Assembly: GCA_944383825.1 (NCBI GenBank)
Contig: CALWRA010000002.1
Span: forward strand, 33,259-97,258
DNA from: an uncultured Acetatifactor sp.
GTDB taxonomy: Bacteria; Bacillota; Clostridia; Lachnospirales; Lachnospiraceae
Direction: 5' to 3'
DNA: 64,000 bases
Under the pieces are notes generated by a model. It saw only the letters and a list, made by a program, of their open reading frames with translations, was not told where the DNA came from and ran no database searches. Below, piece by piece: positions 9,397-61,829 of this stretch. A program made the translations under genes and the position numbers. The number at the start of each line of letters is the position of its first letter. Positions within the stretch are counted from its first letter, which is position 1.

Positions 9397-9812
9397 AGCA
9401 GACAATTTACGAAGACTATAAATACTGCATGCAGGACGTGAGCAGCCTGTATGTGGGAGCGAAATACACCCTGGGCGAGATTGTGGAGGCCGAAGATATT
9501 TTGTTTAAATTCAGAGCATTGGTGGAACGCTATATTTTGCCGGATTCACATCCGCAGGATACGTTGGAAAGCCAGCTGTATTATCTTCAGCCACAAAGCT
9601 TTGCCGCGAAAATGTATGGACAGCTTAAGGCCAGGGTGAAGATCAATATAATAGAAGAAAAGAAAACTCTGCTGGGGAGACCAAGGCGGCAGTTTACTAC
9701 CAGGGTGATCGGCGTGGAAGAGCTGGCGAAAATGTCTCCGGAGGAAAAGAAGGAAAAGGGCGTGGTGGTGCAGGAGCTGATCGTGAGCAAGCTGGCCATG
9801 GCGGCGTTTTAG
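9393..9812 (+). CDS. hypothetical protein (139 aa)
   Basis: ATGA overlap with the upstream stop (translational coupling); GGAG RBS. Confidence 0.75.
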   Translation: MKQTIYEDYKYCMQDVSSLYVGAKYTLGEIVEAEDILFKFRALVERYILPDSHPQDTLESQLYYLQPQSFAAKMYGQLKARVKINIIEEKKTLLGRPRRQFTTRVIGVEELAKMSPEEKKEKGVVVQELIVSKLAMAAF

Positions 9813-9820
9813 AAAATATG

Positions 9821-9861
9821 GAATGGATGCCCGCCGGAGCGGGTCGGGAGGTGTAAATATG
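9821..9861 (+). repeat. hairpin-SD leader motif, copy 1 (before the M16 peptidase)
   Basis: GAATGGA-TGCCCGC-CGGA-GCGGGTC-GGGAGG-TGTAAAT-ATG. Confidence 0.8.
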
Positions 9862-12774: not shown

Positions 12775-12857
12775 AGAATTTCGTCTTTATGATTGAAGGC
12801 GCCAAAAAAGGCGGAAGCGAAGCACAGTGTAGGACGCTTTGAAATGGAGGGAAAAAT

Positions 12858-41265: not shown

Positions 41266-41294
41266 TGGAAAAACAATGTGACAAATGATATAAT
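41266..41294 (+). promoter_or_regulatory. sigmaA-type promoter of cmk-ispH-rpsA-cheR
   Basis: TGGAAA-N17-TATAAT with an extended -10 TG. Confidence 0.65.
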
Positions 41295-41308
41295 GGAAAA
41301 ATAATATT

Positions 41309-41349
41309 GAATGGATGTCTGCGTCAGCAGACAGGAAGGCATAAATATG
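41309..41349 (+). repeat. hairpin-SD leader motif, copy 2 (before cmk)
   Basis: GAATGGA-TGTCTGC-GTCA-GCAGACA-GGAAGG-CATAAAT-ATG. Confidence 0.8.
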
Positions 41350-51204: not shown

Positions 51205-51228
51205 TTTTAATATAAGAAGAATAGTCAT

Positions 51229-51269
51229 GAATTGATGCCCGCTGAAGCGGATAGGGAGGTGTAAATATG
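51229..51269 (+). repeat. hairpin-SD leader motif, copy 3 (before the GH25 gene)
   Basis: GAATTGA-TGCCCGC-TGAA-GCGGATA-GGGAGG-TGTAAAT-ATG. Confidence 0.8.
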
Positions 51270-54026: not shown

Positions 54027-54055
54027 TTGCGCCCTCTTTGAAATTATGCTACAAT
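54027..54055 (+). promoter_or_regulatory. sigmaA-type promoter of thrC-deoC-peptidase
   Basis: TTGCGC-N17-TACAAT with an extended TG. Confidence 0.7.
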
Positions 54056-54074
54056 ATTTCATATTTGGGTCCTT

Positions 54075-54115
54075 GAGGCCATGCCCGCTGGGGCGGGCAG
54101 GGAGGTAAAAGTATG
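54075..54115 (+). repeat. hairpin-SD leader motif, copy 4 (before thrC)
   Basis: GAGGCCA-TGCCCGC-TGGG-GCGGGCA-GGGAGG-TAAAAGT-ATG. Confidence 0.75.
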
Positions 54116-55600
54116 GAAGTATTGTATAACAGCACGAGAAGCCAGGAACAAGCAGTAAAAGCTTCGGAGGCAATTCTGAAGGGCCTTTCCGAAGATGGGG
54201 GGCTTTTTGTACCGGATCATATTCCGGCCCTGGACATAAGTTTCGGAGCCCTTGCCGATATGAGCTATCAGGAAACCGCTTATGAGGTGATGAAGCTTTT
54301 TCTTACGGATTTTTCTGAAGATGAGTTAAAGGATTGCATCGACAGAGCTTATGATGCCAAGTTTGATACGGAGGGAATCGCGCCTCTCAGAGAAGCGGAT
54401 GGAGCGTTTTACCTGGAGCTGTTCCACGGCCCAACTATTGCCTTTAAGGATATGGCTTTGTCCATTCTGCCCCATTTGCTGATTACCTCAGCCCGAAAAA
54501 ATCATATCAAAAATGAAATAGTGATTTTGACAGCCACCTCTGGAGATACCGGAAAAGCGGCCCTTGCAGGCTTTGCAGGTGTGGAGGGGACGCGGATCAT
54601 CGTATTTTATCCCAAAAACGGCGTCAGTCCCATTCAGGAAAAACAGATGGTGACCCAGAAGGGTGAAAATACTCTGGTGGTGGGAATCCACGGCAATTTC
54701 GATGATGCGCAGACGGGGGTTAAGAGGATTTTTTCGGACAAGGCTCTTGCTGAGGAAATGGAGAAAAAAGGCTATCAGTTTTCCTCGGCCAACTCCATTA
54801 ATATCGGCAGACTTGTGCCCCAGATATGCTATTATGTTTATGCCTATGCAAGACTGCTCAAGGCTGGAAAAATTGCGGAGGGAGAAAGGATCAACGCAGT
54901 GGTTCCCACTGGAAATTTCGGTAATATTCTGGCGGCTTTTTATGCTAAAAACATGGGGCTTCCCATTGGCAGACTGATCTGTGCGTCCAATGAAAATAAG
55001 GTGCTGTATGATTTCTTTCGCACAGGCGTGTATGACAGAAACAGGGAGTTTGTGCTGACCTCATCCCCGTCCATGGATATTTTGATCTCCAGTAATTTGG
55101 AAAGGCTGATTTACCGTATAGCGGGGAATGATTCGAATGAAAATAAAGAGCTAATGGATGCTTTAAACGGGCGGGGACGATATGAGATCACGGAGGCGAT
55201 GAAGAAGCAGCTCTCCGAGTTTTACGGGGGCTATGCTGATGAGAAGGAGACCTCGGAAGCTATCTCCAAAATGTACGGAGACTGCGGATATGTGATTGAT
55301 CCCCACACAGCGGTGGCTTCGGCCGTTTACCGTAAATATGAGCAGCAGACGGGAGACCATACGAAGACGGTCATAGTTTCTACGGCCAGTCCCTTTAAAT
55401 TTACCAGAAGCGTCATGGAAGCTATTGATCCCAAATATGAAGGTATGGATGATTTTGCTCTGGCTGACGAGCTTTGCCGCATTGCCTGTATAAAGGAGCC
55501 TAAGGCCATCGAAGAGCTACGGACTGCGCCGGTGATACATGACAGGCAATGCCAGGTGGGTGAAATGAAAAACGTGGTGCGGGAATTTTTGGGACTGTAA
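54113..55600 (+). CDS. thrC: threonine synthase
   Basis: GL..DGGLFVP, ELFHGPT.AFKD.AL (PLP lysine), ATSGDTG, NSINIGRL, PTGNFGN. Confidence 0.96.
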   Translation: MEVLYNSTRSQEQAVKASEAILKGLSEDGGLFVPDHIPALDISFGALADMSYQETAYEVMKLFLTDFSEDELKDCIDRAYDAKFDTEGIAPLREADGAFYLELFHGPTIAFKDMALSILPHLLITSARKNHIKNEIVILTATSGDTGKAALAGFAGVEGTRIIVFYPKNGVSPIQEKQMVTQKGENTLVVGIHGNFDDAQTGVKRIFSDKALAEEMEKKGYQFSSANSINIGRLVPQICYYVYAYARLLKAGKIAEGERINAVVPTGNFGNILAAFYAKNMGLPIGRLICASNENKVLYDFFRTGVYDRNREFVLTSSPSMDILISSNLERLIYRIAGNDSNENKELMDALNGRGRYEITEAMKKQLSEFYGGYADEKETSEAISKMYGDCGYVIDPHTAVASAVYRKYEQQTGDHTKTVIVSTASPFKFTRSVMEAIDPKYEGMDDFALADELCRIACIKEPKAIEELRTAPVIHDRQCQVGEMKNVVREFLGL

Positions 55601-58211: not shown

Positions 58212-58223
58212 ATAAATAACCTG

Positions 58224-58409
58224 AAATGACCGATAACTCTTGTTCGTTTTGAACCTACATTTACTTTAAACGGGATTCCTATATCGCCAGGCAGCTGTCA
58301 AGCCCTCACTTCAGGCGTTTTGGCCGGAAGGATTGGAAGGGAAGGCAAAAGTTTGGTTGCGGTTGCCCACCTAGCATTGCTAGGAGTCAAAAAACAGGAG
58401 GCGGCATTT
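58224..58409 (+). ncRNA. ssrS: probable 6S RNA
   Basis: About 185-nt rod: AAATGACCG pairs CGGCATTT, CTCTTGTT pairs AACAGGAG, TTTTGA pairs TCAAAA; then a large central bubble with a small 3' hairpin CCTAGCA-T-TGCTAGG; own promoter and terminator. Confidence 0.8.
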
Positions 58410-58464
58410 TGGGGGATAAAAGAAGAAGCGTCACGTCAAAGTGCCGCCATCGTGAACAAAAGAA

Positions 58465-61435: not shown

Positions 61436-61449
61436 AATGTCTAATAGAC

Positions 61450-61750
61450 AAAAGGCAATGATGGCACATAGTAGCGTTTCATTTTCTTACAGAGAGAGGA
61501 AGCCGTCGGCTGTAAGCTTCCTTAAGTTCAGGTGAAGTGTCGAAATTCCTGCCGGAGCCGCCAAAAGGAACGGGTTACATGGATTCGCAGCGTGTTGATG
61601 CGGGCGGATAAACCTGAGTAGTTTTGGACGCAGGCTGCGCGTTAGGCAGAAAAAGAGAGTCCCTTTGATCATGTCTGTCAAGGGGGAAGATGGGTGGTAC
61701 CGCGGTGAAATATCGTCCCTTGCTGAAATCTGCAGCAAGGGACTTTTTGT
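61450..61750 (+). promoter_or_regulatory. T-box riboswitch (Phe specifier)
   Basis: AGAGA and GCTG stem-I motifs; GAAA-TTC specifier at 61546-61548; T-box GGGTGGTACCGCG; TCGTCCCT; terminator CCCTTGCTG..CAGCAAGGG-ACTTTTT. Confidence 0.93.
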
Positions 61751-61788
61751 GTGGAAAAGAATAAGAGGTTAGCGGCTGCGGAATAGAT

Positions 61789-61829
61789 GAATGTATGTCC
61801 GCCGAAGCGGACAAGGAGGTATAGCGATG
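61789..61829 (+). repeat. hairpin-SD leader motif, copy 5 (before pheS)
   Basis: GAATGTA-TGTCCGC-CGAA-GCGGACA-AGGAGG-TATAGCG-ATG. Confidence 0.8.

Follow-up and report, generated by a model that had tools for sequence, protein, structure and literature searches.

Why should genes that share no pathway begin with the same leader? The question is raised by a stretch of 64,000 nucleotides (the window) from an uncultured chicken-gut bacterium, an Acetatifactor sp. of the Lachnospiraceae (contig CALWRA010000002.1, positions 33,259 to 97,258). A first-pass annotation of the window, made from the sequence alone, had described a short hairpin that abuts a Shine-Dalgarno (SD) sequence in front of five genes: a gene for an M16C/PreP-like peptidase, cmk, a GH25 muramidase gene, thrC, and pheS. 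The explanation that we favor, with moderate confidence, is that this element is a dispersed, start-codon-adjacent repeat of a Lachnospiraceae subclade that supplies the gene's ribosome-binding site (RBS), in the manner of mycobacterial interspersed repetitive units (MIRUs). Two parts of this explanation, that the element is a repeat and that it donates an RBS, are well supported. A miniature repeat that donates an RBS was among the options listed by the first-pass annotation, and it is the one that the comparative evidence favors.

The five copies and their structure

Searching the 64-kb window with the copy pattern TGYCYGC-N4-GCRGRYN-RGRAGG gave five exact matches, all on the plus strand (at 9821, 41309, 51229, 54075, and 61789), and these lie where the first-pass annotation had placed them. 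In dinucleotide shuffles searched with up to two mismatches, 0.10 matches were expected, and no shuffle reached six. A chance origin of the five copies is excluded. The geometry is identical in all five: a 7-bp hairpin with a 4-nt loop, an SD that follows without a gap, a 7-nt spacer, and the ATG (Table 1). The abutting stem and the constant spacer had both been pointed out beforehand. The element provides the SD and its spacing for the downstream genes. Upstream of the hairpin, GAATGGATG is the same in copies 1 and 2 and differs by one base in copies 3 and 5, as had also been claimed.

Three of the stems are perfect (TGTCTGC/GCAGACA, TGCCCGC/GCGGGCA, and TGTCCGC/GCGGACA). The copy at 9821 has a G.U pair and an open base pair (arm GCGGGTC), and the copy at 51229 has one C.A mismatch (arm GCGGATA). 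A generic scan for a hairpin that abuts an SD and is followed by a start codon recovered four of the five copies at real gene starts; the GH25 copy was missed because of its stem mismatch, and the remaining matches were inside open reading frames (ORFs).

The copies lie in different contexts, and here too the earlier description was accurate. Copy 1 occupies the entire 46-nt mid-operon gap behind the upstream stop codon (9810-9812), and copy 3 lies in another such gap, between rnfB and the GH25 gene (the upstream stop codon is 62 nt before the GH25 gene). A promoter-like site, TGGAAA-17-TG-n-TATAAT, lies at 41266-41294, and copy 2 is about 10 nt downstream of it. There is a conserved -10 box, TGCTACAAT, upstream of thrC copy 4. 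The pheS leader contains a T-box (61449-61723) with a terminator stem (61715-61743), and copy 5 starts 40 nt after this stem. Pfam confirms the names of the downstream genes (for example, M16C_assoc and PreP_C in the M16C product and Cytidylate_kin in the cmk product). In the thrC leader (54050-54135, plus strand), a long helix is predicted in which UACAAUAUUUCAUAUUU, beginning with the -10 box, pairs with AAAGUAUGGAAGUAUUGUA around the start codon (-35.1 kcal/mol, z-score -5.6); its 5' strand probably lies in part upstream of the transcription start, so this helix may not exist in the RNA.

We built a covariance model from 18 copies and scored the window with the filters off. A covariance-model scan of the genome and its relatives had been proposed in the first-pass annotation as a check. 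The model found exactly five copies in the window, at 50-55 bits, and two more in flanking DNA. The next match on the plus strand had 11.6 bits, and the matches on the minus strand, none above 16 bits, were only echoes of these copies, which are palindromic. True copies in general scored 41-63 bits, and chance matches scored at most 17 bits. Between the M16C gene and a DUF4349-family gene (12775-12857), there is TGATTGAAGGCGCCAAAAAAGGCGG and then GGAGGGAAAAATATG, with a loose likeness to the layout of the element; part of this gap scored 9.8 bits, and it may be either a very degraded copy or a chance match.

In the alignment, three stem pairs have changes on both sides, and sliding the partner column by 1-3 positions collapses the pairing. 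Because part of the alignment was selected for pairing, a genome scan with a free stem is a cleaner test. We searched 185,579 representative genomes with the pattern GAATGNATGNNNGCNNNNGCNNNNNRGRAGG, which leaves five of the seven stem pairs unconstrained (the GC/GC pairs are fixed in part by the pattern). This gave 78 loci versus about 70 expected by chance. Eleven matches at 10 loci were from Acetatifactor, Eisenbergiella, and uncultured Lachnospiraceae. Ten of these form all seven pairs and one forms six, and all 11 have GGGAGG and then a start codon downstream. The remaining matches, from other phyla, form 2-6 pairs, lack the GGGAGG and start-codon context, and scored 17 bits or less with the covariance model. 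The free-stem scan also added compensatory stems (TGCCTGC/GCAGGCA and TGTGCGC/GCGCACA). A match with six of seven pairs in Anaerobium (L007) was not reported by the covariance model, and we did not count it as a member. The earlier claim that the stems covary stands in so far as compensatory stems exist. Covariation does not prove function at each locus: several stems are decaying, and the M16C copy of a relative has lost its 5' arm.

In predicted minimum-free-energy folds, the hairpin is present in all five leaders (-6 to -13 kcal/mol). The conserved helix ends directly 5' of the SD, which lies outside the helix in every copy. We therefore rejected a riboregulator that sequesters the SD (an RNA thermometer or a small translational riboswitch), as the SD is unpaired in the conserved structure. 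The predicted duplex between the SD and the anti-SD has -8.5 to -15.8 kcal/mol, given a generic Firmicute anti-SD tail that may not be the host's. Long-range pairing of the AU-rich flank with the spacer was rejected as it is not kept between copies, and CsrA sites were rejected as the loops lack GGA. We also rejected an internal promoter (TTGAAA/TTGAAT as the -35 and AATATT as the -10), which would have a spacing of 11 or 27 nt.

Across the family, the GC/GC closing pairs are invariant, the U-A and G-C pairs at the base of the stem are nearly so, and TTGAATGNA in the flank is conserved, while the loop varies. A form such as TGCCCGC-N4-GCGGGCA is a perfect 18-bp palindrome, and the first-pass annotation had mentioned a DNA operator as an alternative. 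An operator for a dimeric transcription factor would fit the cmk and thrC copies, which are just downstream of promoter-like sites. We nevertheless consider it very improbable: the half-sites change together (TGTCTGC/GCAGACA, TGTGCGC/GCGCACA), which preserves complementarity and not a recognition sequence. Also, copies are found in mid-operon gaps and after the T-box terminator; their position is fixed relative to the SD and the start codon and not relative to promoters; and their strict co-orientation is not required of a symmetric operator.

Copy number, tandem units, and turnover

In a collection of 5.8 billion sequences, no other protein is more than 82% identical to the ThrC of the window; among named sources, Candidatus Acetatifactor stercoripullorum comes nearest, with 81%. 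From the same species, we obtained 9.5 kb of flanking DNA on the left and 8.8 kb on the right (18.4 kb). Here, there are copies before ligA (TGTCCGC TGAA GCGGACA AGAGAGG, 52 bits) and before an M18 aminopeptidase gene (42 bits), both with the 7-nt spacer. There are thus seven copies in 82.4 kb, or about one gene in 10, and two of the seven are outside the chosen window. The left flank also encodes a PhdYeFM antitoxin / ParE toxin pair (L166:104-655, about 9 kb left of the window). Since other Lachnospiraceae have just 1-2 matches to the strict pattern per representative genome, the element seems to be unusually abundant in the species of the window, which by extrapolation would be an expansion.

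In this species, each of the seven copies is on the gene's strand and stops 4-8 nt short of a start codon, and the same is true of every gene-proximal copy in other genomes. The downstream genes share no pathway: in the window species they encode the M16C peptidase, Cmk, GH25, ThrC, PheS, LigA, and the M18 peptidase, and elsewhere aldose epimerase, an FtsX permease, a DUF4956 protein, flagellin, a class-V aminotransferase, BioY, and pyruvate kinase. A scan of viral contigs for the dominant form gave no matches, and blastn of a two-unit array against plasmid and phage collections gave nothing relevant.

The solo form of the element is about 46 nt long and consists of an AU-rich flank with TTGAATGNA, the 7-bp GC hairpin with its 4-nt loop, the abutting SD, and a 7-nt spacer that is rich in AU. 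Its end falls exactly at the start codon, it is always co-oriented with the gene, and its similarity over about 46 nt includes nonstructural positions. Several genomes have a longer unit, of 62-70 nt and with two hairpins, in which the hairpin-SD module forms the second half. The added hairpin opens with TTG, 7 nt after the preceding SD, and it covaries as well (TTGAAAG/CTTTCAA, TTGGAA/TTCCAA, TTGAACG/CGTTCAA, and TTGAAAAATG..CATTTTTCAA). After this hairpin come a linker, (A)TATTGAATGNA, the GC hairpin, and the next SD.

These units form tandem arrays, which lie in 5' untranslated regions (UTRs; Table 1). The array before bioY is preceded by a promoter and a BirA-operator-like inverted repeat (GTAAACC..GGTTTAC). 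The unit is also found in tandem before a NifS-like aminotransferase gene, and one and a half units lie before a pyruvate kinase gene. The repeated stretches between hairpins are identical within an array, not unique. In the window itself there are no tandem arrays; the nearby ligA copy retains the end of the two-hairpin linker (TCAAATATTGAAT). An alternative pairing, of the 3' arm of hairpin A with TTGAATG, was rejected because it is lost where hairpin A covaries (L040).

The first-pass annotation had suggested a lineage-wide element, and this is not what we found. With a threshold of 40 bits, there are no copies in about 119 kb of DNA from the nearest relatives and none in 1.08 Mb from 80 more distant relatives. 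The nearest relatives keep the gene order near thrC and M16C, and the orthologous junctions can be compared. Between rnfB and the GH25 gene, the relatives have a short gap with a plain AAGGAGGAA (AGGAGG) and a spacer; the window has a 42-nt module in place of the plain SD, and similarity resumes exactly at ATGCG. No target-site duplication is visible at this junction, and the relatives are too diverged to exclude one. In front of pheS, the closest relative (88% identity) has AGAAAGAGGAAAAGC-ATG, again a plain SD. Given a plain SD in the relatives and an SD with its spacing in the element, the element appears to behave as a portable translation-initiation cassette.

The M16C junction is different. 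In the closest relative (78% protein identity), L169:9966-10003 reads GAATTG-TCCCA-AAAG-GCGGGCA-GGAGG-TATATGT-GTG and scores 14.8 bits. This remnant can still be recognized as the element: its 5' arm has collapsed, but it retains the 3' arm (GCGGGCA) and the SD, followed by a 7-nt spacer and GTG as the start codon. The loss of the hairpin here, and its imperfect form in three of the seven copies of the window species, argue that individual loci can be expressed without it. A second relative has a longer M16C junction that is unlike the others and contains GAATGA and a TTGAAT..ATTCAA hairpin. Before thrC, the relatives have the same promoter with a different hairpin (GCCGC-TCAC-GCGGC) and SD, at 9 bits or less. 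These thrC hairpins (L162:9940-10003, the same in L165, and L163:9950-10003, where a 21-nt insert splits the hairpin) may have nothing to do with the element, may descend from an old copy that has diverged, or may be where the family came from.

Judging from these junctions, the copies are of different ages: some were gained in the lineage of the window, and at least one predates a species split and is decaying elsewhere. Unequal ages and turnover are the behavior of a repeat family and not of a conserved cis-regulator. One further comparison, of an orthologous copy in two species (L020 and L051), is uninformative because the flanks are already about 95% identical. The first of these loci, from an Acetatifactor metagenome-assembled genome, also has an FMN riboswitch (L020:7826-7965, RF00050, 98.6 bits), which is unrelated to the element. 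In four DNA sequencing runs, none of the variants and joints listed was inside the three elements examined, with too little power for more to be concluded.

Might the hairpin be a recognition site for a lineage-specific RNA-binding protein or a hairpin-specific endoribonuclease (Cas6/Csy4-like or other), with the downstream genes as one regulon? Conservation does extend beyond the structure, to the closing GC/GC pairs, the base of the stem, and the TTGAATGNA flank, and copies in the window species are near the family consensus while those of relatives have drifted. There is also a weak likeness to a CRISPR-repeat hairpin: in an E-value search of Rfam with the thrC copy, the only matches were RF01356, at 18.3 bits, and a spurious long noncoding RNA. 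This explanation is nonetheless quite unlikely. The RF01356 score is far below the gathering score of 35, and the "spacers" within an array are identical, so we also rejected a CRISPR array as such (a CRISPR-DR27 match in L011 is repetitive coding DNA). The invariant GC/GC pairs are imposed in part by the search pattern, the loop varies freely, the gene set has no functional theme, and we identified no candidate factor.

Table 1. Copies of the element in the window, the mini-ORFs within them, and tandem arrays at other loci. Bit scores are from the covariance model; energies are predicted.
Feature	Position	Strand	Score; hairpin energy	Flank	Hairpin	SD	Spacer	Start codon	Sequence or remark
Copy 1, before M16C/PreP-like peptidase gene	9816..9861	+	54.1 bits; -10.3 kcal/mol	ATATGGAATGGA (9816-9827)	TGCCCGC CGGA GCGGGTC (9828-9845)	GGGAGG (9846-9851)	TGTAAAT (9852-9858)	ATG (9859-9861)	GAATGGATGCCCGCCGGAGCGGGTCGGGAGGTGTAAATATG (9821)
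Copy 2, before cmk	41304..41349	+	52.4 bits; -10.8 kcal/mol	ATATTGAATGGA	TGTCTGC GTCA GCAGACA (41316-41333)	GGAAGG (41334-41339)	CATAAAT	ATG (41347-41349)	GAATGGATGTCTGCGTCAGCAGACAGGAAGGCATAAATATG (41309)
Copy 3, gap between rnfB and GH25 muramidase gene	51224..51269	+	54.9 bits	GTCATGAATTGA	TGCCCGC TGAA GCGGATA (51236-51253)	GGGAGG (51254-51259)	TGTAAAT	ATG (51267-51269)	GAATTGATGCCCGCTGAAGCGGATAGGGAGGTGTAAATATG (51229)
Copy 4, before thrC	54070..54115	+	50.1 bits; -13.1 kcal/mol	TCCTTGAGGCCA (most divergent of the five)	TGCCCGC TGGG GCGGGCA (54082-54099)	GGGAGG (54100-54105)	TAAAAGT	ATG (54113-54115)	GAGGCCATGCCCGCTGGGGCGGGCAGGGAGGTAAAAGTATG (54075)
Copy 5, before pheS	61784..61829	+	55.0 bits	TAGATGAATGTA	TGTCCGC CGAA GCGGACA (61796-61813)	AGGAGG (61814-61819)	TATAGCG	ATG (61827-61829)	GAATGTATGTCCGCCGAAGCGGACAAGGAGGTATAGCGATG (61789)
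Mini-ORF in copy 1	9827..9856	+							ATG at 5' base of hairpin; nine codons; TAA 2 nt before gene ATG
Mini-ORF in copy 2	41315-41344								same arrangement
Mini-ORF in copy 3	51235-51264								same arrangement
Mini-ORF in copy 5	61795-61824								same arrangement
Tandem array, before bioY	L040:2500-2760								3 units of 64 nt
Tandem array	L073:1-260	-							at least 4 units of 70 nt
Tandem array, before flagellin gene	L031:3376-3502
Tandem array	L039:370-477

Mini-ORFs and the proposed mechanism

Of 15 copies, 14 have an ATG at the hairpin's 5' base, with its A outside the helix, and a TGA lies 7 nt before this ATG in 13 of 15 (UUG-A in the flank). The ORF that begins at the hairpin-base ATG has 9-11 codons and spans the hairpin and the SD. 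In 10 of the 14 copies it stops at the gene's start, either 2 nt before the start codon (seven copies) or overlapping it as ATGA or TTGA (three copies). Stop codons between the SD and the start are in the frame of the mini-ORF in 11 copies versus three and one in the other frames (the copies are not independent). In the arrays, the TTG of the first hairpin opens a short ORF that ends at the flank TGA or at a TAA. If they are translated, the mini-ORFs could relay ribosomes by termination and reinitiation. Within a unit, the chain would run from an SD through a mini-ORF and its stop to a second mini-ORF, which contains the next SD, then to another stop and the gene, with ribosomes handed on at each step.

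In copies 1, 2, and 5, the TGA is followed directly by another ATG, which precedes the one at the hairpin base by 4 nt and shares the reading frame of the gene. This gives 12-codon extended ORFs and is a likely source of misannotated start sites in the clade. The first-pass annotation had already regarded three such N-terminal extensions as false (ORF starts at 9823, 41311, and 61791 versus true starts at 9859, 41347, and 61827) and as noncoding. We agree: gene callers use the shorter starts on other assemblies of the same species, and copy 3 has an in-frame TGA.

The hairpin would fold alone in the mRNA and leave the SD and the AUG free, which would insulate the RBS from the sequence upstream. 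Together with a bound 30S subunit, it would block decay in the 5'-to-3' direction. The conserved UUG-A in the AU-rich flank, followed by the hairpin and a distal AU-rich tract, resembles a maturation site for RNase Y. For such sites, sequence features and hairpin-stabilized cleavage products that are protected from RNase J1 have been described (bioRxiv 10.1101/2023.03.12.532304), and RNase J1 is also blocked where a ribosome initiates at a strong SD (PMC5737220).

The RNA data were uninformative on these points. Over the GH25, thrC, and pheS copies, chicken-gut metatranscriptome contigs have a depth of about 1-6 and no usable ends. One contig (run X29) has its first base at 51252, within the hairpin's 3' arm at the GH25 gene, and carries Illumina adapter letters; a single fragment end of this kind is too little for an interpretation. 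Contigs from mouse-gut metatranscriptomes run straight through the flagellin array of L031. In the metatranscriptome contigs that match the region, no feature is nearly as abundant as the 6S RNA of the window (58215-58419, plus strand, RF00013, 56.5 bits), which has a word depth of up to about 2800 versus 0-6 for its neighbors.

The features just described could instead mean that the host itself selects the element as a post-transcriptional module, in which the hairpin and the SD are kept for a processed, RNase J-resistant 5' end and a context-independent RBS, with the repeat-like spread being secondary. Such a module would be the natural equivalent of the cggR/gapA maturation site or of stabilizers such as aprE and STAB-SD. 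The UUG-A TGA is at a fixed distance from the hairpin-base ATG, and the order of AU-rich flank, hairpin, and AU-rich tract parallels RNase Y sites. In addition, the hairpin abuts an SD that is predicted to be strong (with the assumed generic anti-SD tail), compensatory stem variants occur inside one genome, and arrays lie in the leaders of flagellin and pyruvate kinase genes. We think this alternative unlikely. The element is not kept at orthologous genes in the nearest relatives, its hairpin is decayed at M16C in L169 and is imperfect at the GH25, M16C, and M18 genes, and the genes that it serves are not obviously highly expressed or coherent. The sparse metatranscriptome contigs gave no supporting RNA ends.

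To return to the RBS-donating repeat, several points count against it. We found no transposase, target-site duplication, or presence/absence polymorphism, and all strains carry the copies. The copies are related by descent, so the covariation and the counts of in-frame stops are not made up of independent events. The density of copies is estimated from 82 kb around a window that was chosen for having them. In the window species itself, three of the seven hairpins (GH25, M16C, and M18) are imperfect, and at the M16C gene of L169 the hairpin was lost while the SD and its spacing survive. Finally, the metatranscriptome contigs, which are sparse or run through the element, gave no sign of processing, stability, or mini-ORF translation.

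A broader form of the same idea is possible if doubtful. The element might represent a class of mobile elements, not described before, that target translation start sites: it would overwrite the native RBS with a hairpin-SD cassette, multiply as tandem relays of mini-cistrons in 5' UTRs, reach roughly a hundred copies in one gut species of Lachnospiraceae, standardize initiation for about one-tenth of its genes, and become a substrate for a factor that recognizes the hairpin.

Comparison with known systems

The first-pass annotation did not recognize the element as a named RNA family, and this holds against Rfam 15: with gathering thresholds, only the T-box and the 6S RNA were found in the window, and a search of six array-carrying loci gave nothing at the element. 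In the literature, we found no description of a hairpin-SD repeat in Lachnospiraceae or Firmicutes. The element does not look like a MITE (miniature inverted-repeat transposable element), as its sole inverted repeat is the internal hairpin and the sequence of one end (ATATTGAATG...) does not recur in inverted form at the other (...TATAAAT).

Most repetitive extragenic palindromic (REP) elements are located 3' of a gene or in the space between two convergent ones; they occur in either orientation and are frequently paired as inverted copies. Like these elements, bacterial interspersed mosaic elements (BIMEs), and other RAYT-associated palindromes, our family consists of short, GC-rich, imperfect, dispersed palindromes that may be structural elements of mRNA. 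In contrast, all copies of our element lie 5' of genes, face a start codon in a single orientation, and include an SD, so we rejected a REP/RAYT-type palindrome.

A stem-loop near the 5' end (a processed one in some cases) combined with a strong SD is also known from Firmicute stabilizers (the aprE stem-loop and RBS, the STAB-SD of cryIIIA, the hbs SD, cggR/gapA, and glnRA), and the likeness extends to a G-A step in single-stranded, AU-rich sequence that precedes the hairpin and to the AU-rich tract that follows. As regards cggR/gapA-type features for RNase Y, the element has, at the level of sequence features, a TGA/UUGA at a fixed position in 13 of 15 copies, an AU-rich flank, and an AU-rich spacer. 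However, the stabilizers are single, gene-specific leaders, whereas our element is one family that was copied to many unrelated genes, also in tandem.

Among engineered parts, the bicistronic design is similar: its short leader cistron includes the SD of the following gene, terminates at that gene's start, and makes initiation independent of the upstream context. Synthetic insulated RBS parts in which a hairpin (Csy4 or ribozyme) directly precedes the RBS can be likened to our element as well. These parts differ in being engineered, and the natural mini-ORF of the solo form has no SD of its own. If our reading is right, then RBSs are not always shaped gene by gene, and a short repeat can replace them wholesale, doing in nature what insulated or bicistronic RBS parts had to be invented for in synthetic biology. 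A compact hairpin-SD cassette from gut Clostridia would also be a candidate expression part. For annotation, the fixed geometry matters because it creates in-frame upstream ATGs and hence false 12-codon extensions at the N terminus. Like variable number tandem repeats, the arrays could differ from strain to strain in their number of units.

MIRUs were described without dyad symmetry and rely on ORF coupling. Like them, our element is a short dispersed repeat (tens of nt) that is intergenic, co-oriented, and located at start codons (seven of seven copies), with tandem units at four loci (L040, L073, L031, and L039). The small internal ORFs of MIRUs, which stop at or over the next start and keep the gene translated, may have a counterpart in the putative mini-ORFs, although such coupling would be only partly kept (10 of 14 copies). 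We regard the likeness as an analogy, since MIRUs belong to another phylum, and our element has one or two GC or AU hairpins and its own strong SD at a fixed 7 nt. Insertion of MIRUs at start codons, with a coupled internal ORF, has been reported (Supply et al. 1997, as summarized in PMC12548453). From these comparisons, the hairpin-SD family appears to be undescribed in Rfam or in the literature that we found, and MIRUs appear to be the closest known kind. If the element is indeed an RBS-donating repeat, then it would be a second and phylogenetically remote case of the MIRU strategy, insertion at the start codon without silencing the gene.

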